Assembly (NCBI GenBank): GCA_041667145.1
Contig: JBAYFP010000002.1
Span: forward strand, 14,436-78,435
DNA length: 64,000 bases
Origin: Minisyncoccota bacterium
Lineage (GTDB): Bacteria > Patescibacteriota > Minisyncoccia > Phycocordibacterales > UBA9973
Direction: 5' to 3'
In this document: in pieces, positions 13,016 to 59,469 of the stretch
How positions within the stretch are numbered: position 1 is the stretch's first letter
Layout of the letters: each line of letters begins with the position of its first letter
Notes under the pieces: model-generated
What the model was told of the DNA's origin: nothing
Seen by the model: only the letters and a program-made list of their open reading frames with translations
Database searches by the model: none
Position numbers and translations under genes: made by a program

Positions 13016-16000
13016 TTATTCTTCTTCAGGCACTTTTACCCTACTTTTAAATCCAGTTCCTGCTGGAATTAATCGCCCAATAATAACATTTTCTTTTAAT
13101 CCTCTCAACGAATCTATCCCACCCTTAACTGCATTTTCAATAAGGACACGATTTGTATTCTGAAATGATGCCGCAGAAAGCCAACTTTTTGTACGTAGAG
13201 ATACTTCAGTAATACCGAGTACTATTGTTTCAGCTTTTGCTTCTGTCTGATTAATTTTTTCTACTCTATTATTTTCTTCAATAAATGCAGTGTTCTCAAC
13301 TATATCTCCAACAGAGAAATTAGTCTCACCAGCATCTTTTATTTTTCTTCGTGAAAACATTTGACGAATAATTATTTCAGTATGTTTTCTAGAAATAGAA
13401 GCACTCTGAAGTTCATAAACTTTGTTTATTTCTCGAATAATATATTCCTCAACCATTTCTTTAGTTCCAAACTTAAATATCTCAGCGATATCTGCTGATC
13501 CATCAGTAAGAAGTTCACCTTTTTTCACTTTTTGACCAACTTTTACTATTGGTAATCTGCGGAATGGTACAAGATATTCTATTTCGTTTGGCTTACCATC
13601 AATTTTACTATCAGAAAGAATCTTAATTATTTTTTCTCCGCCTTGGCTAGACGAAGCAGGTTTCCCATCTTTATCTTTTATCTCAAAAACCTCTCCATCA
13701 GTTTCAGAAATTATTGCTGGATTTTTAGGGATACGTCTTTCAAAAATTTCTTCAATACGAGGCAACCCCGTAGTAATATCTGTTCCAGCGACACCTCCAG
13801 CATGAAAAGTTCGAAGTGTAAGCTGTGTACCTGGCTCCCCGATAGCTTGTGCGGCAATAATACCTACTGCCTCCCCTAGATCGACAAGATGATTTCGTCC
13901 TAAGTCTAATCCATAACACATCTGACAAAGACCATGGGTAGTGTGACATGTCAAAGGAGAACGAACATAAACCTCTTCGAAACCCATACCTTCAATATTG
14001 TACGCTTCTTCTTTTGTGACTAAAAATCCCTTTTTATAAATAATCTTTCCATCTCTATCTTTAAGATCAGCAGCGAGAACTCTTCCACGAATATTTTTTG
14101 AAAGTGGGATTTCAATACCAGAAATATTTTCTTTCCTTACCATTTTCCCATCTTTTGTGCCACAATCCTCCTCGGTAACAACAACATCCTGTGCAACGTC
14201 GACTAATCTACGAGTCAAATATCCCGCTTTAGCAGTATTGAGTGCAGTATCTGAAGCACCTTTACGAGCACCATGAGTAGTAACGAAATATTCGATAGGA
14301 GAAAGCCCCTCATGGTAAGAAGGTATAATAGGAAATTCCAACGTCTTACCTTGGTTATTTTGGATAAGTCCTTTCATCCCCATCATTTGAATTAAAGAAG
14401 TCACTGTACCTCTTGCTCCTGAAGTAACCAGGTCATAAGTAGGGCCGTTTTTATCAAGTGCCTTAAGAAGAACTTTTTCTAATTCTTTTTTAGCATGTGT
14501 CCAGATTTCAATAATCTTTTGATACCTTTCTTCTTCCGAGAGAAGACCTTCATTCCATTCTAATATTACTTTCTCTTCCAATTTTCTACCTTCTGATATA
14601 ATTTTTTCTTTTTCAATTGGAACTTTTATATTATCAAAACCCCAGGTCGTACCAGAAACTGTTGAATATTGAAAACCAAAACTTTTTATTTTATCCAAGA
14701 TAGGTGGAGTCTCGTCTACACCATAGTGCATAATAAGTTCATCTACAAGAGAAGATATTCTCTTTTGAGTCATCTCATCACTTATGTATGAAAAATCACT
14801 TGGCAAGATACTGTTAAAAAGAAGTTTCCCAACAGAGGTATCAAAAAAACCTCCATCAAATTTTCTATATTTATGTTTATCTGTCGCTAAAACTTTTATT
14901 TTTGCACGAAGAGATACGATACCATATTCGTAAGCAGTTATGGCGACATTCGGACTCGAAAAATATTTACCTTCTCCTATTTCACCGTCAACAAGTTTCG
15001 TCATCCAATAAGATCCAAGCACAATGTCTTTACTGGGATGCACGATAGGATCACCGTTTTGAGGTTTCAATAAATTTTTATTTGCAGCCATCAATTCTTT
15101 TGCTTCAGCTTGAGCCTCTTCAAGAAGAGGAACATAAACAGCCATTTGGTCTCCATCGAAGTCAGCATTAAAAGCCTGACAAACTAATGGATGTACTTGA
15201 ATAGCATTTCCCTCAATAAGAATAGGATTGAAAGCTTGAATACCTAAACGGTGAAGAGTAGGTGCGCGGTTCAAAAGAACATATTTACCTTGAATCACTT
15301 CTTCAAGCATTGCCCAAACTTCTGGGGTACGTTCTTCTATGAGTTTATTTGCTCCACGAATATTAAATGCTAGCTCTGCTTGTAAAATTTTAGAAATAAC
15401 AAATGGTCTAAAAAGTTCGAGAGCCATGTGTTTTGGCAAACCACATTGATTGAGTTTAAGTTCTGGACCAACCACAATAACACTACGGCCCGAGTAGTCA
15501 ACACGTTTACCAAGTAAATTTTGACGGAACAACCCTTGCTTTGATTTTAAGTTGTCAGATAAAGATTTAAGAGGACGCTTTTGGGATTGACTCATTGCTG
15601 CACTATCATTTTGTTTTGCAATAGAGTTATCAATAAGAGCATCCACTGCCTCCTGAATAATTCTTTTTTCATTTCGCAAAATTACATCTGGAGCATTTAT
15701 CTCTTTTAACTTTTTTAAACGATTATTTCTGTTTATAACTCGACGATAAAGATCATTCAAATCACTCGTTGCATGACGACCTCCATCTAGGGCTACCATT
15801 GGGCGCAAAACTGGAGGAATAACTGGAATAACTGTCAAAAACATCCACTAAGGCCTTATTCCTGCATAAGTCATAGCTCTGATAAGTGAAAGTCTTTTTT
15901 GTAATTTCTCTTTTTCAATCACACTTGCTTTTTCAATCATTTTCTCAGTGTGAATTTTTAATTTATTTAAATCAAGATTCTTAAAAATAGAATATATAGC

Positions 16001-20271: not shown

Positions 20272-20419
20272 AAAAATGCCCTTTATATTATATTTAAAAA
20301 ATTAATTTTAATTGCGAGAACTATTACAACCTATATTGTATATAATACAATTGACTCTGTCAACTTTTTTCTGTCCTTTTATATCAACAAAATAAAGTCC
20401 ATCTGGGTTTGTTCACCTC

Positions 20420-20435
20420 TAGGCCTTGCCTAGCT
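20420..20435. repeat. REP-like GC-rich hairpin, left copy flanking the transposase (taggccttgcctagct)
   Basis: Exact reverse complement of the right copy at 21123-21138. Its internal stem is ctagg/cctag. It contains the transposase stop codon. Confidence 0.8.
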
Positions 20436-21096
20436 AAATTTCATTCTTATAGTTTAACCATTCAAAAATCTCACTTAAAAAATCTCTCCCTGTTGGGAAA
20501 TATTTCGGAAATGATTTTGTATTTAATATTTTATTTTGTATTCTTTGTATCCCTATATAATCTAAATAACTCGAGTAAAGATAATCATATAAATATCTTT
20601 CAGATTCTTTTCTGTTTTTAATCCCCTTTTCCTTCCAATCCTTTTGTATAAGTTTCATTGGATTCAAATGAATATAAGAAAACATATATTTAAGATATTT
20701 ATCTTTGTCTATATGCTGTGATTTAAATTTGCCTTCAAATAAGCTACCCGTTCTTTTATATTTTTTATTAAAATACATCGAATAAGAAGTACTCAATTTC
20801 TGCATAAAATTACTTATATTATTGTCTCCCGATTGTGTTATTAATAAATGAAAGTGATTAGACATTAAACAATACGCACCAATATAAACAATCGGTTCTT
20901 CTTGTTCAATCTCATATAAAGTTTGACCCTTATTTAAATTACTAACTTTCAAACTACCCGTTTGGTTACAAGCATATAAAAGACTTATAAAACGCAAATA
21001 GTCCTCTTCGTCAAGAAAGATTTTCTGCTTACTATTTCCTCTATTGTAAATGTGATAATACTCACCTGAGACTAAACTTACTTTTCGTATAGACAT
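20434..21096 (-). mobile_element. IS200-like / REP-associated tyrosine transposase (RAYT, COG1943-type HUH Y1 transposase)
   Basis: YHIYNRGNSKQKIF..DYLRF..LL, the AYCLMSNHFHLL HUH motif, and LSTSYSMYFNKKYKRTGSLFEGKFKSQHIDKDKYLKYMFSYIHLNP. The gene is flanked by perfectly inverted 16-nt GC-rich repeats. Confidence 0.8.
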
Positions 21097-21122: not shown

Positions 21123-21140
21123 AGCTAGGCAAGGCCTAGA
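21123..21140. repeat. REP-like GC-rich hairpin, right copy (agctaggcaaggcctaga)
   Basis: Inverted copy of 20420-20435. It overlaps the 3' end of the patatin-like gene. Confidence 0.8.
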
Positions 21141-22040: not shown

Positions 22041-22760
22041 TTATCTACTAAATAATCTTTCAGCTAGGCAAGGTCTAGATGAATTTTTCCATTCCTCTAT
22101 CTTTTTATGATTCCCAGACAGTAATACTTTTGGAACTTTGTAATTTTTGTTTTTATATTTTAAAATTTCTGGACGAGTATAAACTTCGCTTGAAGATATT
22201 CTTTCTTCTTCTCGTGAATCGAAATTACCAAGTACACCTTCTATTTGACGAGAAATGCAGTCTACTAAAATCATGGCTGGGATTTCTCCACCAGTCAAAA
22301 CATAATCTCCTATTGATAATTTTTTGGTCTTTAATATTTTATCAACTCTTGCATCTATCCCCTCATATCTTCCACAAATCAAAATAATATCAGTATATTT
22401 TTTAGAAATTAATTTGGCATAAGTAGTTGTGAATTTTTCTGCACTAGGAATGAAATTAATTATTAAAATTTTTTTATTCCCCTCTTGAGGGGTGGCTCGC
22501 TTACGAGACGGGGTGGATATTTTTTTTACTACTGTTCTCACTGTTTCAAGCAGTGGCTCGGCTCTCATGACCATCCCCGGACCTCCACCATAGGGCTTAT
22601 CATCTACTGGTTTATAGTTAGTTTTATTTCCCTTAATAAAATCTCTGGGATTATAAAACTTCACAGAAATAAGCTTGTTTTTTATTGCCCGACCAATAAT
22701 AGACTCACTCAAATATGAATCAAATATGTCTGGGAAAATTGTAATTATATGAAAACGCAT
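22041..22760 (-). CDS. trmD: tRNA (guanine37-N1)-methyltransferase TrmD
   Basis: MRFHIITIFPDIF... and the SPOUT-knot region ILICGRYEGIDARV. The ORF track starts at 22781 with TTG; I take the ATG at 22758-22760. It contains a GC-rich insertion at 22474-22520. Confidence 0.85.
   Translation of the reverse strand: MRFHIITIFPDIFDSYLSESIIGRAIKNKLISVKFYNPRDFIKGNKTNYKPVDDKPYGGGPGMVMRAEPLLETVRTVVKKISTPSRKRATPQEGNKKILIINFIPSAEKFTTTYAKLISKKYTDIILICGRYEGIDARVDKILKTKKLSIGDYVLTGGEIPAMILVDCISRQIEGVLGNFDSREEERISSSEVYTRPEILKYKNKNYKVPKVLLSGNHKKIEEWKNSSRPCLAERLFSR
22062..22079. repeat. REP-like hairpin, third copy (agctaggcaaggtctaga, 1 mismatch)
   Basis: Same orientation as the copy at 21123. It lies inside the 3' end of the trmD ORF (encoding ...RPCLAE...). 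Confidence 0.75.
22474..22520. repeat. GC-rich hairpin element inside trmD (ttattcccctcttgaggggtg-N15-ggggtggatat); a paralogous copy lies in pheT
   Basis: Stem cccctc/gagggg plus the inner hairpin ctcg-ctta-cgag. It encodes STPSRKRATPQEGNKK in frame. It shares 22+11 identical nt with 37859-37901. Confidence 0.75.
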
Positions 22761-23662: not shown

Positions 23663-25609
23663 ATGAAGAAAAAAATAACTAACAAAGCAGAGGGCATAAT
23701 ATCCATCTCCTCAAAAGGTACGGGGTATGTTAAAGTCCTTTGTTTTGAAGAAGACCCAGAGATAGACTTTAAACACTTAAATACCGCACTTCATGGCGAT
23801 ACAGTCGAGATAATACTCCATCCAAAAGGTAAAAAACGACTTACCGGAGAAGTATTGAAAGTAATCTCACGAATAAAAGTCGGTTTTTCGGGGGTATTAG
23901 AAAAAGAAAATGGTTTTTATTTCTTAAAGCCAGATGACACAAAAATGTATACCGATATTTTAATACCAGAAAAATTACTAAATAGCGCAAAAGTTGGTCA
24001 AAAAGTTTATGTAAAAATAACATCATGGGAAGATTCAAAGAAAGCACCAGAGGGTGAAGTAATAAAAATTTTAGGACAACCTGGTGATAATAATACAGAA
24101 ATGCATGCTATAGCTATTGAGAAAGGCTTTGATAGCGAACTACCTAAAAAAGTGGAAGAAGAGGCTAAAAAAATAAAAAATCTAGGAATAAAAAACGAAG
24201 ATTTCTTGGGACGACGAGATTTTAGGAAAACTCTTACATTTACTATTGACCCTGAAGATGCAAAAGATTTTGATGATGCTATATCGTTTAGGATTCTTCC
24301 CCCTCTCCTTAATGAGGAGAGGGGGCTAGGGGGTGAGGTGTATGAAATAGGCATCCACATAGCCGACGTCACTCACTATGTAAAAGTAGGAAGTGAAATC
24401 GATCATGAAGCAAAGAATAGAGGAACTTCTGTATATTTAGTGGACAGAACGATACCCATGCTTCCAGAAACACTTTCTAATGATTTATGTTCCCTGCTCC
24501 CTCATAAAGATAGACTCACAATGAGTGCTGTATTTATCATAGACAAGAATGCACATGTAAAAAAAGAATGGCATGGACGCACAGTAATACATTCACAAAA
24601 AAGATTTACTTATGAAGAGGCAGAAGAAACTATAAAAAAAATCGACGCACCACTGCATAAAGAACTTTCTATTTTAAATAATTTAGCAAAAAAATTAACA
24701 AAAGAAAGATTTGCCAATGGTGCTATCTCTCTCGAACAAGAAGAAGTGAAGTTCGTCTTGGATAAAAATGGAGTACCAATAAAAGTAATAAAAAAGGTAC
24801 GTGGTGATTCAAATAAATTAATTGAAGAATTTATGCTTCTCGCAAATAAAAAAGTTGCAGAGACAATCTCAAAAGGCACTAAAAAGGAAGGTGGTGTATT
24901 TGTATATAGAATACACGATAACCCTAGTAAAGAGAAAATGACCGACCTTGCATTCTTTTTGAGAAGTCTAGGACATAAAATATCATTAGTAGACGGAGTA
25001 ATACCAACCAATGAAATAAATGCCCTTTTAAAAAGTTTAGAAGGTAAAAGTGAAGAAAATACAGTGAATAGAGCAGTAGTACGTTCTATGGCAAAAGCCA
25101 TTTATTCTACAAAAAATATCGGACATTATGGACTTGCTTTTCCATATTACGCTCATTTTACTTCCCCCATCAGGCGTTATCCTGACATAGTAGTTCACAG
25201 ACTTTTGAACGATTATTTAAAGGGTATAAAAGTAGGAAAGGAAAAATTGAATATTTACGAAGAAATCTCTTTAAAAGCATCAGAGAGAGAGAAATATGCT
25301 TCCGATGCCGAAAGAGCATCTATAAAATATAAACAAGTTGAATACATGTCTTCTCGTATTGGAAAAACATTCAAAGGAATCATAAGTGGAATAACAGAGT
25401 GGGGTATATATGTGGAAGAAATAGAGACAAAATGTGAAGGCCTCGTACGAGTGAGAGATATGGAAGATGATTTTTATATCTATAATGAAAAGAAGTTAGA
25501 ATTACTTGGACAGAAAAAGAAAAAGAGATATAGGTTAGGAGATAACGTAAAAATAAAAGTAAAAAGTGTTGATTTAAAAAGAAAAACAATTGATTACACA
25601 TTGGTATGA
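23663..25609 (+). CDS. rnr: ribonuclease R / RNase II-family exoribonuclease
   Basis: An RNB catalytic domain (DPEDAKDFDDAIS...HIADVTHYV) and a C-terminal S1 domain. I prefer the ATG at 23663 (the ORF track starts at 23630). It contains a GC-rich hairpin insertion at 24299-24340. Confidence 0.85.
   Translation: MKKKITNKAEGIISISSKGTGYVKVLCFEEDPEIDFKHLNTALHGDTVEIILHPKGKKRLTGEVLKVISRIKVGFSGVLEKENGFYFLKPDDTKMYTDILIPEKLLNSAKVGQKVYVKITSWEDSKKAPEGEVIKILGQPGDNNTEMHAIAIEKGFDSELPKKVEEEAKKIKNLGIKNEDFLGRRDFRKTLTFTIDPEDAKDFDDAISFRILPPLLNEERGLGGEVYEIGIHIADVTHYVKVGSEIDHEAKNRGTSVYLVDRTIPMLPETLSNDLCSLLPHKDRLTMSAVFIIDKNAHVKKEWHGRTVIHSQKRFTYEEAEETIKKIDAPLHKELSILNNLAKKLTKERFANGAISLEQEEVKFVLDKNGVPIKVIKKVRGDSNKLIEEFMLLANKKVAETISKGTKKEGGVFVYRIHDNPSKEKMTDLAFFLRSLGHKISLVDGVIPTNEINALLKSLEGKSEENTVNRAVVRSMAKAIYSTKNIGHYGLAFPYYAHFTSPIRRYPDIVVHRLLNDYLKGIKVGKEKLNIYEEISLKASEREKYASDAERASIKYKQVEYMSSRIGKTFKGIISGITEWGIYVEEIETKCEGLVRVRDMEDDFYIYNEKKLELLGQKKKKRYRLGDNVKIKVKSVDLKRKTIDYTLV
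24299..24340. repeat. GC-rich hairpin element inside rnr (cccctctcc-ttaatga-ggagagggg + gctagggggtgagg)
   Basis: A 9-bp perfect stem. It encodes the extra loop LPPLLNEERGLGGE between the DDA and HIADV motifs, where orthologs have ~10 fewer residues. Confidence 0.7.
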
Positions 25610-28303: not shown

Positions 28304-28720
28304 TTAAAATTTTTCTATATAGGATTTTGCTAGCTTAAATGTTTTAAATTTATCCCCCATCTTAATTTCTTTTAAATAATCCAAAAAATCCCTCGGCAAT
28401 GGGGATGGCCCAACCCAGACACTTTTTTGAATCATTATATAATCAAACTTTATTAATTGTCGTCTAAACCAGTCACGTTCTTTTTTCATTGAATGTGGAA
28501 TATCATACATCACCATCAAATTTTTAGAAGAATCTTTTTTAAAAGGTGAAGAAAAAGTAATATGATAAAAAGTCCTTTTTCTGTTTTCTTTTTTTACACG
28601 ACTTTTTCTTCCTTGTGAAAAAATAGGAATCCCAAAAGAATTTACTTCCACTCCTTTATAAAATAATTTCTTTTTGGGATTCATATACAAACTATACCAC
28701 CCCATCCCCATATACGCCAT
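28304..28720 (-). CDS. hypothetical protein with a Cas2/VapD-like C-terminal motif (LMVMYDIP...RRQLIKFDYIMIQKSVWVG)
   Basis: The pattern (hydrophobic)-YDI ... R..L...(G/D)...Q.SVW resembles the Cas2/VapD ferredoxin-like fold. There is no CRISPR array nearby. The start is uncertain because the first codons lie inside a perfect 28-nt palindrome. Confidence 0.35.
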   Translation of the reverse strand: MAYMGMGWYSLYMNPKKKLFYKGVEVNSFGIPIFSQGRKSRVKKENRKRTFYHITFSSPFKKDSSKNLMVMYDIPHSMKKERDWFRRQLIKFDYIMIQKSVWVGPSPLPRDFLDYLKEIKMGDKFKTFKLAKSYIEKF

Positions 28721-28734
28721 GGCGTATATGGGGA
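28707..28734. repeat. perfect 28-nt GC-rich palindrome ccccatatacgccatggcgtatatgggg; its half-site 'catatacgccatg' recurs at 28274-28286
   Basis: Read directly from the sequence. The two copies bracket the Cas2/VapD-like ORF. Confidence 0.7.
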
Positions 28735-28763
28735 TTAGTTAAAATTCTTTTATAATCTATTAG

Positions 28764-31043
28764 CTATTTCGCAATTGCGACTGCGTCGTCGAGTTTTACG
28801 GATAGAAGTTTAGAAGCACCGTCATTACCTATCGTGACACCATACAAAATGCCCGCTCGAGACATTGTTTCTCTATTGTGAGTAACGACAATAAGTTGAG
28901 AATGATGGGATAACTTTTCCAACATATCCCCATATTTACGAGAATTCGCTTCGTCGAGTGCAGCATCCGTCTCATCTAAAACCAAAAATGGAGGTGGGTT
29001 TACTTGCGACATTGCAAAAAGAAGAGCAATAGATGTAAGGGACCTTTCTCCCCCTGAAAGTGCATTAAGTTCTTTTACCTTTTTATGTGGTAGAGAAACA
29101 TTAATATCGATACCTTGTTCAAAGACTATCTCTGATTCAGTAGAATCATCCCGAGCATCTTCGAGGGATTCATCTGCTTTTTTCTTTTTATTCTCAACAA
29201 CTACAGAAAGATGTGCTTCCCCGCCTCCAAACATTAATGAAAAGAAATTATTAAATTCAACATTTATTTTTTTAACACCTTCTTTAAATTCAACATCGAT
29301 CTTCTCTTTTAAATCTGCCATAAGCGTACGAAGTGACTCTATACTTTTTGCTAAATCTTCCATTTCTTTAGCAAGAAAATTATCCCTTTGTGTTACCTCT
29401 TCGAATTCTTTTATGACTTCAGACCCTCCACCCGATCCAATGTCTTCTAATTTTATTTTAATACGTTCTATTTTTCTTCTTAATTCTTCCTGTAAATTCT
29501 TATCAATTTGTTCATTCACTTCAAAATTCCTATAAGAAAATATATCACTACCAATCAAAGCTCCACCTTCTTTTATTTCATTTTCAAAGGCCTCTGTCTC
29601 TTTTGACAAACTTTCTTCTTTTATTGAAATAAGCTCTAAAGCAGAAGATAGTTCTTGATGCTTTACTCTGAAATTAAATTTTTCCTTTTCTTTTATATGT
29701 AGAGCTTCATTTTCTTGTGTGATTTCATTTTTTAATTCCGTTATTTTTTCTATAATCTTACTTTCTTCATTTTCTACATTCTGCATCTCAGCCATAATTT
29801 CTTGTTGGTTTTTCTTCAACATCAAATTTTCAGAAGATATAGTTTCTGAATGGTCTGGCTGGGAGAGGGACCCGGGGAACCGAGGACCTGAAGAAACTAT
29901 GCCTTCTGAAAATTCTTTTAAAATATCTTTAATCCTCAAAAGGATATATTTTATTTCTGCTATGTTTTCTTCAGAAATAGCCAAATCTATTTCTGAATTA
30001 ATTTCATTAAATACTTCTTTTATTTCTCCAGGATTTTTTACCACGATTTCAACTTCGGATGTTTTTTGACTTCTCCTTTCCTCCATTTCTATCATTCCCT
30101 CGATTCTTCCCAATTTACGTCCTATTTCATTTTTGACTGAACGAATTTCGCTAACTTTTTTTTCAAAGTTTTTTAATTCCTTTTCTTTTTCACTTTCTTC
30201 TTTTCTATCTGTTTCCTCAACATCAAAAATCTTTGTTTTGATACTTTCTAATTCTACTAAAATCTTATTTCTTTCTACTTGCAGATTAGATTTTTCTTTT
30301 TCCAAATACACACTTTCTTTCTTTAGATACTCTTTATAAATGGATAAAAGTGTTACCTGCATTTCTTTGGCTTTTTCAAATTTATCTACTTGTTTTTTAA
30401 GAAAATTGAGATGTGGAGCGTTCTCTCGACGCAAAAGTGACACTTCTTTCATATTGTTAGTGGTCCTCTCCAATTTTCGTTGAGATTCTTTTATTTTATA
30501 TTGATATATTTTAAGTCCAAGAGCATCTTCTACCATTTCTCTTTTATCTTTAGAATTTGCATTTAAAATCCTGTCTGCTTCACCCTGAGAAATGATATGA
30601 TGACCCGAAGAACCTATATTTACCGAAGCTAAAAGATTATTAATGTCTTTTAGTCTTACTTCAGCGCCATTTAAGATATACTTATTCAACCCATCAGAAT
30701 AGACCTCACGAGAAATCGAAATAACATCATAATTTAAATTAATATTTTCTCCCGTTTCATTTGAAAGTTTAAAAACTTTATCAGAGTTGTCAAAATAAAT
30801 CGTAACTGTCGCACGAGAGCTTTTAGGTAAATTCTTAGATCCTTTAAAAATCAAATCAGAACCAGAAGACCCTCGCATCGATTTGATAGACTGTTCACCC
30901 AACACGAAACGAAGTGCTTCTACTACGTTTGATTTACCAGACCCATTAGGTCCTACGATAGAAACAATAGGATTTTGAAATTCTAAAACAGTTTTTTTAG
31001 AAAATGATTTAAAGCCATTTATCTCAAGATTCTTCAATCGCAT
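28764..31043 (-). CDS. smc: SMC-family chromosome segregation ATPase (short form)
   Basis: N-terminal Walker A VGPNGSGKSNVVEALRFVLGEQS, a long coiled coil, and the C-terminal signature LSGGERSLTSIALLFA...LVLDETDAALD. It is 759 aa. It contains a GC-rich insertion at 29855-29893. Confidence 0.8.
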   Translation of the reverse strand: MRLKNLEINGFKSFSKKTVLEFQNPIVSIVGPNGSGKSNVVEALRFVLGEQSIKSMRGSSGSDLIFKGSKNLPKSSRATVTIYFDNSDKVFKLSNETGENINLNYDVISISREVYSDGLNKYILNGAEVRLKDINNLLASVNIGSSGHHIISQGEADRILNANSKDKREMVEDALGLKIYQYKIKESQRKLERTTNNMKEVSLLRRENAPHLNFLKKQVDKFEKAKEMQVTLLSIYKEYLKKESVYLEKEKSNLQVERNKILVELESIKTKIFDVEETDRKEESEKEKELKNFEKKVSEIRSVKNEIGRKLGRIEGMIEMEERRSQKTSEVEIVVKNPGEIKEVFNEINSEIDLAISEENIAEIKYILLRIKDILKEFSEGIVSSGPRFPGSLSQPDHSETISSENLMLKKNQQEIMAEMQNVENEESKIIEKITELKNEITQENEALHIKEKEKFNFRVKHQELSSALELISIKEESLSKETEAFENEIKEGGALIGSDIFSYRNFEVNEQIDKNLQEELRRKIERIKIKLEDIGSGGGSEVIKEFEEVTQRDNFLAKEMEDLAKSIESLRTLMADLKEKIDVEFKEGVKKINVEFNNFFSLMFGGGEAHLSVVVENKKKKADESLEDARDDSTESEIVFEQGIDINVSLPHKKVKELNALSGGERSLTSIALLFAMSQVNPPPFLVLDETDAALDEANSRKYGDMLEKLSHHSQLIVVTHNRETMSRAGILYGVTIGNDGASKLLSVKLDDAVAIAK
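29855..29893. repeat. GC-rich element inside smc; shares the 13-mer ccgaggacctgaa with a pheT element (39171-39204)
   Basis: ctggctgggagagggacccggggaaccgaggacctgaag encodes SSGPRFPGSLSQPD. The shared 13-mer is read as SGPR in smc but as QVLG in pheT. Confidence 0.65.
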
Positions 31044-32754: not shown

Positions 32755-32979
32755 TTATTTTTCTGCTTTTTTAGCTTTTTCTTTCTTTTGCTTCTTTTCC
32801 ATCTTTTTTACTAAATCCAACACTTTTATACCACGGTAAAAACCGCAAGATGAACAAACTGTATGCTTTTTCTTAAAATTTGAACAATTCTCGCATTTAG
32901 TAAGACCTGTACTCATCAATGCATGATGGGAACGTCGATTTGCTGTATGCGATTTTGTATGTCTCATTCGTACTACCAT
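32755..32979 (-). CDS. rpmF: 50S ribosomal protein L32 (zinc-ribbon type)
   Basis: MVVRMRHTKSHTANRRSHHAL..., followed by CENCSNF...CSSCG. Confidence 0.8.
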   Translation of the reverse strand: MVVRMRHTKSHTANRRSHHALMSTGLTKCENCSNFKKKHTVCSSCGFYRGIKVLDLVKKMEKKQKKEKAKKAEK

Positions 32980-33114
32980 AATGGGTTTATGTTAGCATGA
33001 AAATTAAGCAAAGGCAATTTTTCCTCGGGTCCTCGAGGCAGAGCCCCAGACCAGCTCGAAAAAACTCCTTTGTTTAATTTTCATCAAATAAAAAAATATG
33101 ATACTATAAGATAT

Positions 33115-34860
33115 ATGTCAGAAACTGATAAATTACACAATCTAAGACACTCACTGGCACACCTTTTAGCAGCTGCTGTTTTGGAAATGTACCCAGATAC
33201 AAAAAACACTATCGGTCCTTCTATAGAAGATGGTTTTTATTACGACTTTGAATTTAAAGAACCTATTTCTGATAAAGATTTACCAAAAATTGAAAAGAAA
33301 ATGAAAGAGATTTTAAAATCCTGGAAACAATTTGAAGGTATTGAAAAGACAGAAAAGGAAGCAAAAGAATATTTCTCAAAAAACGAATACAAATTAGAAC
33401 TTATAGATGAAATTACTGGCAAAGGTGAAAAAATAACCTTTTACACATGTGGAGCTTTTACGGACCTTTGTCGAGGTGGACATCTAGAAAATCCAAGCAA
33501 AGAAATATCATCCGACTGTTTTAAGCTCGATCGCGTAGCCGGAGCATATTGGCGTGGAAATGAAAAAAACAAAATGCTTACCCGCATCTATGGACTAGCT
33601 TTTGAAAATAAAGAGGAATTAGAGAAATATATAAACCAAAGAGAAGAAGCTAAAAAAAGAGACCATAAGAAAATCGGCAAAGACTTAGATCTCTTCACAT
33701 TCTCTGAATTAGTTGGTTCTGGCCTTCCTCTCTGGACGCCAAAAGGCACACTAATAAGAAATCTTTTAGACGATTACGTTTGGGAACTTCGTAAACAATA
33801 TGGATACATGAAAGTAGAAATTCCACATATTACTAAAAAGGATTTATATATAACAAGTGGACATTGGGATAAATTTAAAGATGAACTTTTTCGCATAACA
33901 ACACGTGAGGGTCATGAATTTGCAATGAAACCAATGAATTGTCCTCATCATACACAAATCTACGCCAGAAAAGCATGGAGTTATCAAGAACTTCCACAAA
34001 GATATGCTAATACAACTACATGTTATCGTGATGAACAGTCAGGGGAATTAGCAGGGCTATCAAGAGTTCGTTCTTTTGCACAAGATGACGCTCATGTTTT
34101 CTGCAGAATGGAACAAACAAAAAATGAATTTCTAAAGATATGGGATATAGTATATGATTTCTATAAAGTTTTTGGTTTTAAACTACAAGTAAGACTTTCA
34201 ACCCATGATCCAAAATATATGGAGAAATATTTAGGAGAAGAAGAAAAATGGCAAGAGGCTGAAAATATACTTAGAGATATAATAAAAGAAAAAAAAGTAG
34301 AAGCAATAGACGGATTAGGGGAAGCAGCATTTTATGGACCAAAATTAGATTTTATGGCAAAAGATTCTTTGGGACGAGAATGGCAAGTCGCCACAATTCA
34401 ACTTGATATGAATATGCCTGAGCGTTTTGATCTAAGTTGCACAAGTGAAAAAGGAACAAAAGAAAGAATAGTAATGCTCCACGCTGCTATCATGGGTTCT
34501 ATTGAAAGATTTATGTCTATCCTAATAGAACATACAGCTGGCAATTTCCCTCTTTGGCTTTCTCCTGTACAAGTAAAAGTGATTCCTGTCAGAGAAAATC
34601 ATAATGAATATGCGAAAAAGATTTTTAATTTATTAAAAGAAAATAATATTCGTGCAGAGCTTGATGATAAAGGAGCAAATCTCGGTGGAAAAGTTCGCGA
34701 TGCTAAGAATAACAAAATCCCTTATTGGATCGTCATTGGAGATAAAGAAATAGAAGCAAATAAAATTACCTTAGAATCTCGCGATGCTGGTCAACTTGGT
34801 CAAATTTTGCAAGAAGAACTCCTAGAAAAATTCAATAAGGAAATTAGAGAGAAAAAGTAA
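33115..34860 (+). CDS. thrS: threonyl-tRNA synthetase
   Basis: HSLAHLLAAAVLEMYP (second additional domain), class II motifs and a C-terminal anticodon-binding domain. The ORF track starts at TTG 33070; I prefer the ATG at 33115. Confidence 0.88.
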   Translation: MSETDKLHNLRHSLAHLLAAAVLEMYPDTKNTIGPSIEDGFYYDFEFKEPISDKDLPKIEKKMKEILKSWKQFEGIEKTEKEAKEYFSKNEYKLELIDEITGKGEKITFYTCGAFTDLCRGGHLENPSKEISSDCFKLDRVAGAYWRGNEKNKMLTRIYGLAFENKEELEKYINQREEAKKRDHKKIGKDLDLFTFSELVGSGLPLWTPKGTLIRNLLDDYVWELRKQYGYMKVEIPHITKKDLYITSGHWDKFKDELFRITTREGHEFAMKPMNCPHHTQIYARKAWSYQELPQRYANTTTCYRDEQSGELAGLSRVRSFAQDDAHVFCRMEQTKNEFLKIWDIVYDFYKVFGFKLQVRLSTHDPKYMEKYLGEEEKWQEAENILRDIIKEKKVEAIDGLGEAAFYGPKLDFMAKDSLGREWQVATIQLDMNMPERFDLSCTSEKGTKERIVMLHAAIMGSIERFMSILIEHTAGNFPLWLSPVQVKVIPVRENHNEYAKKIFNLLKENNIRAELDDKGANLGGKVRDAKNNKIPYWIVIGDKEIEANKITLESRDAGQLGQILQEELLEKFNKEIREKK

Positions 34861-37569: not shown

Positions 37570-39441
37570 CTATCTTACTTGCCAATCATTTTTCTCCTTG
37601 ATTTTATTGGTTATTTTAGTCATAATTTCGTTTATTTCATCGTCAGTAAGAGTCCTTTCATAAGATTGGAAAACTAGCCTAAAAGCATACGAAGTCTTAC
37701 TATCTTTAGTGAAAGAATCAAAAAGATATGGCTCCTTAATTAAAAGTTCTGTACCATTTTCTATAAGTATCTTCTTCAATTCTTTCACATTCCCTCCTTC
37801 CGGCATCCAGACAGCAATATCACGAGAAATAAAAGGATAAATTGACCAAGGAAGAAATTTATTCCCCTCTTGAGGGGTGACGCCTGCGCCGGGGTGGATA
37901 TATTTTCCACCTCCCCCTAAAGGGTACTCCTCAAGAAGAGAATCTTTACAAAATTCGTTGAGTGTCATTTCTTTTATTTCTTTTTTATCTCCATAAGCGA
38001 CATGCATTTCTTCCCCACTTTTCTTGAACACAGTACCTATTTCAAAAATCTTTATTTCTTTCATTTCAAGAAGTGGTAAATTGATCTGATTTAATTTCAA
38101 GCTTTCTTTTAATCCATCAGTCAGATTTGTTCTTAAAAACTTTTTATCCGACGCAGAAGCCAATACTTCCACTTCCCCTTTATCTTTAAACGAGTAAGTC
38201 ATAACTTCACTATACCCGCTATTTAAAAGCTTACTACGTGTAAAAATAATTTCTGAAAATATTTCATTCATTTTTGTTTTAGTTTTTATTTCAGGCATTT
38301 TTTCTTTAAGCTTGTCATACCCTAAAATTCGAATCACTTCTTCAGTCAAATCATGAGGACCTGTTATATCAATTCTAAAAAAAGGAACTTCAATCTCAAA
38401 TTCGTCTCCTTTCTTTAAATATTTAAAATTTAATTTTTTCCATACATCTTCTATCTCTTTTTGAGAAAAATCAGAACCCAAATGTTTATTTATATAATTT
38501 ACAGAAACAAAAACCTTTTTTTGTTCAACTTTTTTTGGATAAATATCTATGATAGATTCTGCTTCCCCTCCAGCTAATTCAAAAACCAAATCAGTAATGG
38601 CATTCATAGCCATGGTGCAAAGTTCTGGGGTAATTTCATTTTCATATCTCTTCACAGCATCAGTTAAAATATTTATTTTCTTGGAAGTTTTTCTTGTAGA
38701 AGTTTTATCAAAATTTGCCACTTCTATAACTAGATTTTTTGTCTTATCGTCAACCTCAGCCTTTATTCCTCCTTTTATCCCCGCAATGGCTAAAGGAGTT
38801 TTTTCATCCGCAATTACCAAAATCGATTCATCTAAAATGATCTCTTTTTTATCAAGGGTAGTGAGTTTTTCTCCAACTTTTCCATTTCTTACAATTATTT
38901 TTGCACTTTCTAATTTATCTAAATCAAAACAATGAATCGGTTGACCCAAATCAAACATTACAAAATTGGCAGCATCTACAATATTATTTATTGATTTTTG
39001 TCCTATCGCTTCTAATTTTTCCCTTAGCCAATCTGGGCTTTTACTAATTTTTATATTTCTAACAATTCGGCCCATATAACGAAGACACTTATCTGACTGA
39101 ATTTCAATTTTTAAATCTGGGCCAAAATGGCTTTTTGAACGGTCTGGTTGAGCCTGTTCTTTTAAAGAATCCTGCACAGGCGACCCGAGGACCTGAAAAA
39201 AGCCATTTGGCGAGGATATCTTTAAATTAAAAATAGCAGAAATTTCTTTAGCTATCCCGAAATGAGAAAGGCAATCGTGTGCTCTATCTGGAAGAATTTT
39301 AATATCAAAAATAACGTCATCCCCAATCTTTACAATTTCTTCTACTTCAAAAGAGTGAAAAATAATACCCTCAGATAATTTCTCTGGTTCAGGTAATTTT
39401 TCTTTGAAATAATTTTGTAACCAATTATAACTAACTTTCAT
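37570..39441 (-). CDS. pheT: phenylalanyl-tRNA synthetase beta subunit (short form)
   Basis: B3/B4 and B5 domain similarity, adjacent to pheS. It is 623 aa. It contains GC-rich insertions at 37859-37901 and 39171-39204. Confidence 0.8.
   Translation of the reverse strand: MKVSYNWLQNYFKEKLPEPEKLSEGIIFHSFEVEEIVKIGDDVIFDIKILPDRAHDCLSHFGIAKEISAIFNLKISSPNGFFQVLGSPVQDSLKEQAQPDRSKSHFGPDLKIEIQSDKCLRYMGRIVRNIKISKSPDWLREKLEAIGQKSINNIVDAANFVMFDLGQPIHCFDLDKLESAKIIVRNGKVGEKLTTLDKKEIILDESILVIADEKTPLAIAGIKGGIKAEVDDKTKNLVIEVANFDKTSTRKTSKKINILTDAVKRYENEITPELCTMAMNAITDLVFELAGGEAESIIDIYPKKVEQKKVFVSVNYINKHLGSDFSQKEIEDVWKKLNFKYLKKGDEFEIEVPFFRIDITGPHDLTEEVIRILGYDKLKEKMPEIKTKTKMNEIFSEIIFTRSKLLNSGYSEVMTYSFKDKGEVEVLASASDKKFLRTNLTDGLKESLKLNQINLPLLEMKEIKIFEIGTVFKKSGEEMHVAYGDKKEIKEMTLNEFCKDSLLEEYPLGGGGKYIHPGAGVTPQEGNKFLPWSIYPFISRDIAVWMPEGGNVKELKKILIENGTELLIKEPYLFDSFTKDSKTSYAFRLVFQSYERTLTDDEINEIMTKITNKIKEKNDWQVR
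37859..37901. repeat. GC-rich hairpin element inside pheT (tttattcccctcttgaggggtg-N11-ggggtggatat)
   Basis: Same flanks as the trmD copy with a different-length core. It encodes YIHPGAGVTPQEGNK; part of it is read in a different frame than in trmD. Confidence 0.75.
39171..39204. repeat. GC-rich element inside pheT sharing ccgaggacctgaa with the smc element
   Basis: cctgcacaggcgacccgaggacctgaaaaaagcc; an island of ~65% GC inside an AT-rich gene. Confidence 0.6.
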
Positions 39442-44526: not shown

Positions 44527-47290
<2,764 letters not shown>

Positions 47291-50910: not shown

Positions 50911-51135
50911 AATTTTTCGTTTCGTTTATAACGAAACAACTAATAAATATTACCTAATAATTTTTACCGCTCTTTGGCGGAAATTTCGACTATTTTTTAA
51001 TACATATATTATAACTTTTACAACTATAAAAAGACAACAAGGTTATCCACATTCTAAAATACAACCCCCTTTGTCCCCCTTATCAGGGGGAATTTTTTCC
51101 TCCCCTGACAAGGGGAGGTCAGAAGGGGTTTTTCT

Positions 51136-58767: not shown

Positions 58768-59469
58768 TTGAAAGAATTTATGTTAAAATACTCCTTAATT
58801 ATAACATATATGCATTTTTTAAACACCATACTTAATGTCGTTTTCCCTGTGAATTGCATTTCTTGCGGGAAGAATGGCTCAGATTTATGCAAAAAATGTC
58901 TCGTAGATTCTCCTTATGCTGAAAGAGAAAGTGCCAACTGGATATTCCCACTTTTTGATTATCGTCATATACCTATCAAAAAATCAATTTGGCTTTTAAA
59001 GTACAAGGGTAAAAAGAAATTAGCTGGCATCTTCGCAGAAATCATTTATGAAAAAATAATTGAAGAGCTTTCGGAGTTAAGTGTAATGAAAAACTTTCGT
59101 GAACCAATATTGATTCCTATTCCCCTATCTCCTAAAAGACATAGAGAGCGTGGATATAATCAAGCAGAACTAATTTGTAAAGAATTAATGAAAGTAAACG
59201 ATCTACGCCATGGCGTAAATATGCAATTAGAGAAAAATATTTTAATAAAAATAAAAGAAACAGAACATCAAGCAAATATAAAAGAAAGAAAAGATAGACT
59301 AAAAAATCTTTCAGGCTCTTTCGCTGTAAAAAATGGAGAAACTATAAAAGGGAGAAATATAATACTGATAGATGATGTGCTGACTACTGGGGCAACATTG
59401 AGTGAAGCTAAAAAAACATTGAAACAATACGGCGCTAAAAAAGTAATTGCCTTTACTGTGGCACATTAA
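58768..59469 (+). CDS. comFC: ComF family competence protein (ComFC-like phosphoribosyltransferase)
   Basis: N-terminal zinc ribbon (CISCGKN...CKKC) and the PRTase motif IILIDDVLTTGATL. The start is uncertain; in-frame ATGs lie at 58780 and 58810. It is divergent from the pilus operon. Confidence 0.8.
   Translation: MKEFMLKYSLIITYMHFLNTILNVVFPVNCISCGKNGSDLCKKCLVDSPYAERESANWIFPLFDYRHIPIKKSIWLLKYKGKKKLAGIFAEIIYEKIIEELSELSVMKNFREPILIPIPLSPKRHRERGYNQAELICKELMKVNDLRHGVNMQLEKNILIKIKETEHQANIKERKDRLKNLSGSFAVKNGETIKGRNIILIDDVLTTGATLSEAKKTLKQYGAKKVIAFTVAH

Follow-up and report, generated by a model that had tools for sequence, protein, structure and literature searches.

RPEs, described by Ogata et al. 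(2000, Science 290:347; 2002, Genome Res 12:808) and by Claverie & Ogata (2003, TIBS 28:75), all as cited in PMC6649704, are conserved over their whole length of ~100-150 bp and have arms that lose identity with time (PMC6649704). A hairpin family with several RPE-like traits was found in a 64,000-nt stretch of DNA from a Minisyncoccota bacterium (GenBank assembly GCA_041667145.1, contig JBAYFP010000002.1, positions 14,436 to 78,435 of the forward strand), hereafter called the window, which carries exactly four copies: in an SMC-family gene, in pheT, in the zinc-finger region of ligA, and in the spacer between rpmF and thrS. With a probability of roughly 0.7, the best explanation is a family of non-coding, selfish DNA hairpins in Paceibacteria that have a conserved centre and arms made partly from the host's flanking sequence. 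Like RPEs, the copies are short palindromes in a reduced, AT-rich genome, they sit in-frame in housekeeping genes and also occur outside genes, and they have no known transposase. RPEs are translated as extra surface peptides, and the present copies are compatible with translation, as 94 of 126 lie in open frames and none breaks an open reading frame (ORF). The differences concern the host, which is alphaproteobacterial for RPEs and patescibacterial here, and the extent of conservation: only the core and about 9-10 nt on each side are shared between copies, there is no full-length consensus that includes the arms, and each locus has its own highly complementary outer arms, built at least in part from host flank, which sets the family apart from RPEs by description. 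Homology to RPE-1 to RPE-8 is unlikely, since the host here belongs to Candidatus Paceibacterota and not to Rickettsiales.

REP and REPIN hairpins, which go with RAYT transposases (Y1 HUH enzymes, IS200-like), include GTAG- and CGTC-tagged palindromes (PMC3733652). They share with the present family the short, GC-rich, imperfect hairpin, a conserved stem, many copies (at least 120 loci here) and the lack of a target-site duplication. However, REPs are extragenic by definition while 75% of the copies here are intragenic, REPINs conserve their arms whereas here the centre is conserved, there is no GTAG or CGTC head but a core flanked by TCA...ATTC, and the 85 RAYT-like genes examined here are mostly flanked by other hairpins and in no case by this core. 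Bacterial MITEs within genes include the QMITEs of Coxiella (PMC5896051; review PMC10969869). These are likewise non-autonomous, hairpin-forming and multi-copy, and sometimes extend or modify ORFs, but MITEs end in terminal inverted repeats that are conserved, generate direct target-site duplications and have a parent insertion sequence, whereas the palindrome ends here (10-27 nt) are not conserved between copies, two clean junctions show no duplication, and no parent insertion sequence was found in ~0.9 Mb of loci. Fungal mitochondria reportedly harbour mobile GC clusters, double-hairpin elements and 'byp' elements, said to have been described by Weiller in 1989, Paquin in 2000 and Lang et al. 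in PNAS in 2014. Likened by description, the fungal GC clusters are also GC-rich hairpins that spread in a very AT-rich genome, coding regions included. The byp elements break the reading frame and are skipped by ribosomes, whereas the intragenic copies here are in frame, stop-free and leave no ORF broken. Coding palindromes of Nematomorpha mitochondria, for which quasi-palindrome template switching was proposed (PMC6649704), have both repeat arms translated and an arm identity that is apparently maintained actively; they reach up to 284 bp without a shared mobile core, whereas here a conserved mobile core is central and recurs between sites. By analogy, the family appears RPE-like in its behaviour and REP-like in its hairpin core, and would differ from RPEs, MITEs and REP/RAYT systems by its conserved centre and target-derived arms. 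A full-text literature search found no description of such elements in the candidate phyla radiation (CPR)/Patescibacteria.

The original prediction was that a GC-rich 13-mer shared by smc and pheT points to a nucleotide-level element family colonising coding sequence. The shared word is real: in a window of 34% GC, an exact CCGAGGACCTGAA occurs twice on the + strand, at 29880-29892 in the SMC-family gene and at 39185-39197 in pheT, and the ranges given for it earlier (29871-29893 and 39178-39196) are correct within one base. Both sites lie in minus-strand ORFs (SMC-family ATPase, 28764..31043; PheT, 37570..39441) and are read in different frames on the coding strand, as had been claimed (...IVSSGPRFPG... 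in SMC and ...GFFQVLGSPV... in PheT). One shared 13-mer in 64 kb is weak by itself: GC-rich words can resemble each other by chance, and assembly or adapters can introduce artefacts. Shuffles predict 0.03 matches to CCGAGGACCTGAA with one mismatch tolerated; because this word had been picked post hoc, all repeated GC-rich 13-mers of the window were counted as well, which gave 7 events against a mean of 0.45 and a maximum of 2 in first-order Markov simulations. The window is enriched in general for shared GC-rich words, CCGAGGACCTGAA being one of them. A chance match is ruled out by the shuffles together with the 13-mer census, and chance or artefact in the broader sense is hardly credible given four full copies in the window, where shuffles expect none, and more than 100 independent metagenome-assembled genomes from many studies.

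The 13-mer overlaps a longer pattern, GGTCTGG-N(9-39)-CGAGGACC, which occurs four times in the window; every one of the four CGAGGACC words has GGTCTGG upstream, and none is expected from shuffles. A covariance model made from the copies of other genomes found the same four sites at E <= 1e-7, the next matches being core-less hairpins. What the original prediction had missed is that each GC-rich island is the centre of a hairpin of ~80-115 nt with locus-specific outer arms. All four copies fold as long hairpins (z -2.2 to -8.7), head the inverted-repeat list of the window, and are sense-oriented relative to the adjacent transcription unit.

Copy 1 (whole hairpin 29820..29920, minus strand, in the SMC-family ATPase ORF; covariance model 90.2 bits, E=1.6e-20) encodes ...EFSEGIVSSGPRFPGSLSQPDHSETISSENL... 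and has an RNA fold of -37.3 kcal/mol (z=-6.1). Its core (29852..29888, minus strand) reads GGTCTGG...CGAGGACC on the + strand and GGTCCTCGG-TTCCCCGGGTCCCTCTCCCAG-CCAGACC on the mRNA strand, and holds nine bases of the 13-mer (29880-29888), while the last four (29889-29892) fall in the adjacent constant flank. The two arms, 29825-29847 and 29892-29914, are 91% complementary: the one downstream in gene sense (29825..29847, minus strand) appears derived from native SMC sequence, and the upstream one (29892..29914, minus strand), its inverted copy, occupies the place of the native F(N/D)(E/Q)HK in core-less orthologs. Copy 2 (39109..39224, minus strand, in PheT; 50 bits, E=3.7e-10; fold z=-3.6) encodes PheT residues S76-D109, SSPNGFFQVLGSPVQDSLKEQAQPDRSKSHFGPD, and its core (39141-39193, minus strand) has a 38-nt interior between GGTCCTCG and CCAGACC. 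Copy 3 (32996..33084, plus strand; 40.7 bits, E=9e-8) is an intergenic inverted repeat in the rpmF/thrS spacer with a 25-nt core (33028-33052, plus strand) in sense relative to thrS; its neighbours are divergent, with rpmF at 32755..32979 on the minus strand and thrS on the plus strand with a likely ATG near 33116. Copy 4 (45333..45419, minus strand; 40.6 bits) lies in the zinc-finger loop of the NAD-dependent DNA ligase LigA (44527..46803), has a core at 45364-45387 (minus strand) with a shortened interior, and folds at -41.5 kcal/mol (z=-8.7); the alignment of LigA to E. coli LigA 2owo breaks exactly at this copy.

Across 126 copies, the conserved unit of ~45-75 nt reads, in mRNA sense, TTTTyyTCA-GGTCCTCGG-[8-45 nt]-CCAGACC-ATTCrAAAA. 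The core is 24-61 nt long and contains a conserved GGTC/GACC helix of 4 bp, bracketed by conserved mismatched loops (CTC opposite A, and TCA opposite ATTC). Interiors belong to recurrent types, e.g. TTCTCCGGGTCCCTATCCCGG, AAAAAATC and GTCGCCyGCACAG...GAGCrGGCTCAA, and are usually small hairpins themselves. Beyond the conserved unit, every copy continues for ~18 nt as a perfect or near-perfect inverted repeat that differs from copy to copy. Complementarity between the two arms of one copy is 0.6-0.93 out to ~27 nt from the core and then drops abruptly to the background of 0.3; between copies, likeness of the arms is limited to the first ~9 nt, and positions 10-27 from the core are locus-specific. 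When 68 copies are aligned without gaps, 81% of cells are paired under the proposed structure, compared with 62% in shuffles, and 24 of 30 outer pairs are changed on both sides; the covariation score was 0.447 versus 0.138, a value reached by 0 of 500 shuffles, and sliding the partner gives 0.22 at most.

Rfam returned no family at gathering threshold: the window gave two tRNA matches, and the element gave generic miRNA-like hairpins far below threshold. A bulge-helix-bulge intron or a K-turn was considered for the conserved loops and rejected, as the loop geometry is unsuited when judged from sequence, and an intron is further disfavoured because the reading frame is maintained, which argues against excision. 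In ~18% of copies (e.g. loci L005, L016, L079 and L092), the same T(T/C/A)C triplet stands in direct orientation in both arms at a distance of 21-23 nt from the core; another 2-3 bases pair beyond it, and the result is an asymmetric internal loop. In addition, a 12-mer from the variable loop and T stem of a tRNA-Lys(TTT), GGTCCTCGGTTC (L051 4218, L069 2353, L096 6599 and L098 23), is also found in the left core plus type-A interior of the element; this overlap may be a coincidence or a hint of a tRNA-derived origin.

PheT, SMC and LigA of the window have 100% identical counterparts on a 114,819-nt contig of a Candidatus Paceibacterota metagenome-assembled genome. The distribution was assayed by scanning one genome per species (GTDB) for TCAGGTCCTCG-N(8-38)-CCAGACCRTTC, for which ~4 chance matches were calculated. 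At least 120 loci carry the pattern; among the matches listed, 108 are from AT-rich Patescibacteria and 12 are GC-rich chance matches, and third-party labels of the patescibacterial loci are Paceibacterota, Nomurabacteria or 'Saccharibacteria'. In IMG/VR viral contigs there was one GC-rich chance match only, and a plasmid collection held no match to the element. Three quarters of the copies (94/126, 75%) lie inside open frames of at least 150 codons, 72 of them in sense and 22 in antisense orientation. All frames are used, of which the rarest alone meets a stop within the constant part (TGA in CCTGA), and the intragenic copies are all in frame and stop-free. Copies that break a gene (requiring bypass or splicing) were not found and no ORF was split, and a long-interior, autonomous version was not found in ~0.9 Mb of loci. 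An alternative genetic code or split genes at the window sites were rejected, as the adjoining ORFs are distinct genes (RNase III, NusB-Nudix, L32, ThrRS, UDG, GyrB, PheS). All ten 'non-coding' copies with open frames on both sides lie exactly between two co-directional genes. The distance from the upstream stop to the core is 6-33 nt, and 20-33 nt for nine of the ten. On the other side, nine have the next start 29-51 nt past the core, and one has its first start codon 8 nt past it. Orphan GGTCCTCG words numbered ten, of which four are in the T-arm region of tRNA-Lys(TTT) and none bounds a gene.

The strong covariation of the pairs, the conserved internal loops, the sense bias (72 to 22, and 4 of 4 in the window) and the way in which intergenic copies exactly fill the spacers of co-directional genes would also suit a structured signal selected by the host, be it a protein-bound mRNA hairpin, a signal for RNase III or for decay, a site of pausing or attenuation, or something like a terminator between genes. 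This explanation is nevertheless improbable. Even close orthologs differ in whether a given site is occupied, some of them showing remnants or losses; a single site can carry either orientation; the element sits in unrelated host genes; and Rfam offers no match. The sense bias can be explained by the stop codon in one antisense frame plus tolerance at the peptide level. A host-selected RNA or DNA signal may still be an added role, but it fits the patchy, reversible distribution poorly.

The GC-rich islands are inserts relative to orthologs and the 13-mer is above its expected frequency, both in line with the original prediction. Filled and core-less orthologs were compared in 114 pairs from about 14 genes, namely those for UvrA, UvrB, UvrC, UvrD/PcrA, PheS, PheT, LeuRS, IscS, KsgA, PolA, LigA, SMC, MnmA and the CCA-adding enzyme. 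At PheT site 1, most of 120 orthologs (about 70% identity) have a short KEKEYKIFEPK loop. The element is present at the SMC site in 12 close orthologs and absent from about 100, and the filled SMC orthologs are scattered in a neighbour-joining tree, beside the decayed remnants P0136, P0146/7 and P0134. At the LigA zinc-finger site, filled, flipped, remnant and empty states all occur among orthologs, the majority of which are without the insert. A nucleotide-level family colonising coding sequence is thus supported by a core that recurs across genes, sites, orientations and frames, by orthologs that mostly lack the insert, by the intergenic copies, and by enrichment and taxon restriction. As a separate observation, the LigA zinc-finger loop is an insertion hot spot: about two-thirds of 120 Paceibacteria orthologs (P0241-P0360) have inserts of 20-30 aa, from at least five families, between the two cysteine pairs, and in many the Pfam zinc-finger match is lost or weakened.

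The peptides encoded by the element recur between proteins. The PheT site-1 peptide of the window, QVLGSPVQDSLKEQAQPD, is found again at PheT site 2 of P0045 and P0003, the SMC peptide SSGPRFPGSL..PDHSE in PheT of P0021, and the reverse-complement reading SEWSG..DPGNRGPEE in PheT of P0006 and P0023 and at site 1 of P0022. Recurrence of SSGPR...PDHSE-like peptides in many proteins is what a shared linker or low-complexity peptide (SGPR / PDHS), arisen by convergence or domain shuffling, would produce. The chance that this explains the family is negligible, because the same DNA, read in three sense frames and in antisense, gives the unrelated peptides SSGPR, QVLGSP, RSS, EWSG..RGPE and NGLAG, because copies also occur outside genes, and because what is conserved is nucleotide sequence, base pairing included. 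The intragenic copies appear to be translated as extra protein loops: the frame is always kept while the frame that is occupied varies, which points to translation. An example of a predicted element-encoded peptide is IVSSGPRFPGSLSQPDHSETISSENLMLK. The AlphaFold model of the window PheT has a mean pLDDT (predicted local distance difference test) of 80, with values below 50 at residues 79-106 (copy 2) and 504-531, the latter being a second, unrelated GC-rich insert, and with short low-pLDDT stretches at 79-82, 385-390 and 428-430; the copy 2 insert is modelled as a low-confidence loop of the predicted structure, a sign that the protein tolerates it.

Copies with alike interiors, a part that lay outside the search pattern, bear on the origin of the arms. 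For 69 non-orthologous pairs with at most one mismatch in an interior of 18-31 nt, mostly from different species, arm identity was 0.39 versus a background of 0.38, and arms were shared in just 2 of the 69. Cores travel without their arms. Filled and core-less alleles were also compared at individual sites. Single-gap alignment is noisy where the 'empty' ortholog has a remnant or another insert, and clean pairs were read codon by codon. In IscS, the core-less locus L015 reads ...AAAAGGAAAAGCAGAAAGGTTTT^CCTTTTTTTCAC and the filled locus L071 reads ...AAAAGGAAAAGAAGAAAGGTTTT[CTCA-core-ATTCC-AAAACCTTTCTTCTTTT]CCTTTTTTTCAT, so that the left arm of L071 consists of lysine-rich host codons and the last 17 inserted bases are their reverse complement. 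In UvrC (L080 versus L045), the 60-nt insert consists of TTTTCTCA, the core, ATTCAAAAAA and a 13-nt inverted copy; the left arm is identical at 17 of 21 positions to native codons of the core-less L080, whose loop has native length. UvrD (L074 versus L092 and L047) displays the same arrangement of a host-flank arm plus its inverted copy, and again the loop of L074 has native length and not native length plus an arm.

In SMC, the core-less L124 keeps the native FNEHK and additionally has AAT TCA GGA ATT ACA TTT TCA GAA AAT TCT, a stretch that is identical at 33 of 39 positions to the right constant part plus right arm of the filled L125. The L124 sequence homologous to the downstream arm of copy 1, AATTCAGGAATTACATTTTCAGAAAATTC, has no partner arm. 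Where L124 has FNEHK, both L125 and the window have the core together with an inverted copy of that flank. Because L124 keeps the native FNEHK, it is not a deletion product of the filled allele. As read from these junctions, one of the two arms is flanking sequence of the host, and the second is an inverted copy of that flank, which was added to host sequence or replaces some of it. No direct target-site duplication was present at the clean junctions in IscS (L015 vs L071) and UvrC (L080 vs L045), and an automated boundary scan for one found only the TTC/TCC/TAC triplet in ~18% of copies, with pairing resuming beyond it. Clean junctions show T-run or A-run microhomology. Automated gap lengths exceed the core by 20-44 nt in most clean pairs, an excess that matches the constant parts plus one arm.

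Most likely, I infer, the core is inserted first and a flank is then copied by fold-back (template switching). The core would enter as single-stranded DNA or by copy-choice at the replication fork, helped by microhomology with T-runs or A-runs, and would be copied or ligated into the nascent strand. The new hairpin would then snap back and prime synthesis from its 3' end, with its own strand as template, so that about 13-20 nt of flank are copied before synthesis returns to the original template at a microhomology. This scheme would account for the locus-specific arms, the sharp arm end at ~27 nt, the missing target-site duplication and the variable loss of host residues. Later on, the same template switching may keep the arms paired (concerted evolution) and allow the core to flip between them, internal deletions may leave palindromic footprints, and selection would retain only in-frame, stop-free copies in tolerant loops and spacers. 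A Y1 HUH enzyme (RAYT/IS200-like) encoded in these genomes is a plausible helper, as a candidate only.

Several sites vary among filled copies or carry remnants. Orthologous filled sites carry concerted changes on both arms, e.g. in PolA (L051, L084, L098, L119) and in SMC (window vs L010). The orientation of the core flips between similar arms in UvrA (L013 sense vs L029 antisense) and in the LigA loop. Different interiors can stand between identical arms at one orthologous site (L089 vs L112, 38 vs 53 nt). Locus L121 carries a palindromic footprint, CGGAAGTTT-GG-AAACTTCCG, in which the outer parts of the two arms of L122 and of window copy 4 can be recognised.

A number of results weigh against arms built from the host flank, or limit the data on which that explanation stands. 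In a minority of pairs, from UvrA and LigA (window copy 4), the gap is the core plus ~53 nt, and both arms look extra compared with short-loop orthologs. Eight non-orthologous copy pairs share arms, e.g. PheS and PheT of L112; UvrB of L096 shares arms with PolA of L098 and L051, and 'ASPDAF...QKHTGSA' arms recur in at least five genes. Arms that are shared across genes mean that whole palindromes are sometimes copied. Some of the 'core-less' orthologs may be deletion remnants and not virgin sites, L121 clearly being one, and polarity was taken from loop lengths plus shared native residues. The search pattern needs an intact core, which biases the census towards intact-core copies. Finally, no enzyme has been tied to the family, and the core flanks none of the 85 RAYT-like genes examined.

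Several of these points are what transposition in the style of RPEs or MITEs would produce, in which the whole palindrome of ~80-115 nt is mobile and its arms diverge fast while being kept complementary by concerted evolution (quasi-palindrome correction or arm-to-arm conversion). Cores would then be alike through gene conversion or selection for mobility, and 'native-looking' arms would be remnants of asymmetric deletions. Arms common to different genes in the eight pairs and the widespread ASPDAF-type arms agree with this, as do the concerted two-arm changes in orthologous copies of PolA and SMC, the remnants and footprints, and the different interiors within the same arms at one site (L089 vs L112). 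It is nonetheless an unlikely account of the family as a whole: the 69 pairs with near-identical interiors, often across species, have arms of background similarity, the native FNEHK of L124 rules out a simple deletion, the loops of L080 and L074 are at native length, and a uniform arm end at ~27 nt is unexpected under slow decay. Fold-back copying and movement of whole palindromes may both be at work.

A stronger version of the fold-back explanation is possible, though doubtful. It holds that the element is a 'self-palindromising' mobile hairpin, which would move not by cut-and-paste but by copy-choice at the fork, possibly with a Y1 HUH enzyme, and would write an inverted copy of the host's coding flank at each landing. 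It might then act as a general engine that adds, flips and deletes peptide loops in essential proteins of Paceibacteria, giving rise to hot spots in the LigA zinc finger, PheT, LeuRS, UvrA and IscS.

The window itself encodes a RAYT/IS200-like Y1 HUH transposase of 220 aa (20434..21096, minus strand; PF01797, 38.6 bits; motifs YHIYNRG, NHFH and YIHLNP). Inverted TCTAGGCCTTGCCTAGCT hairpins, which carry CGTC, lie on either side of this gene at 20418-20435 and 21123-21140, in a layout like that of a REPtron. RAYT homologs in L041, L061, L079 and L082 and in 80 metagenome contigs mostly have their own, different GC-rich hairpins (42 of 65), and the element core was absent from the 184 kb around RAYT-like genes that were covered by this limited sample (5 genes in loci and 80 in metagenome contigs). 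The RAYT-like genes were consequently rejected as the cognate enzyme, the hairpins flanking them being from other families.

CPR/Patescibacteria have tiny genomes that are assumed to be strongly streamlined, and yet their essential genes, including those for ligase, aminoacyl-tRNA synthetases, UvrABCD, PolA, SMC and IscS, are full of selfish hairpins that are apparently translated. Gene and domain models fail at the insert sites, as with the lost or weakened Pfam match of the LigA zinc finger, and the inserts, read in more than one frame, steadily supply new loops. If confirmed, the way in which the arms are made would be the surprising part: a stem that is built from the target and not carried along would be a distinct route to palindromes, and would offer an experimentally approachable case of fold-back template switching. 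The core is, in addition, a sharp nucleotide marker for the clade in metagenomes.

Hairpins of other families are present in the window as well. A RAYT-flanking hairpin lies inside LigA at 44893-44952, as TCTAGGCC[36-nt GC-rich hairpin]TTGCCTAGCT, with one hairpin nested in the loop of the other within a translated region, and a partial one, CTAGGCAAGG, lies at 22064-22073 at the 3' end of trmD. Other GC-rich palindromic inserts (CCCCTCTTGAGGGG... and relatives) are found at 37859-37917 (PheT site 2), 22476-22520 (TrmD), 24296-24346 (RNase R), 46191-46295 (LigA) and 51061-51131 (intergenic); L117 and L118 have a member of the GGTCCTCGG family at the TrmD site instead. Compared with E. coli LigA, the LigA of the window carries five inserts. 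At 46432-46484, LigA contains a core-less perfect palindrome of 21 bp around a 4-nt loop (CCCCTAAACCTGGTGTAGGAG / CTCCTACACCAGGTTTAGGGG), and the insert it encodes is missing from E. coli LigA.

Beside the SMC-family gene, the ORF 28304..28720 encodes a Cas2-like/PaaX_M domain (PF20803, PF09827), and the same neighbour is present in L125. The start of this ORF overlaps a perfect palindrome of 16+16 nt, ATCCCCATATACGCCA/TGGCGTATATGGGGAT (28704-28735), whose centre, ACGCCATGGCGTA, recurs at 59204. Lastly, rpoC has an in-frame TAG at 15848-15850 (minus strand) that splits it into ORFs of 266 and 942 aa. The TAG stands at the conserved glutamate of RPEWM, is one base from GAG, and could be a sequencing error, a polymorphism or a site of read-through.

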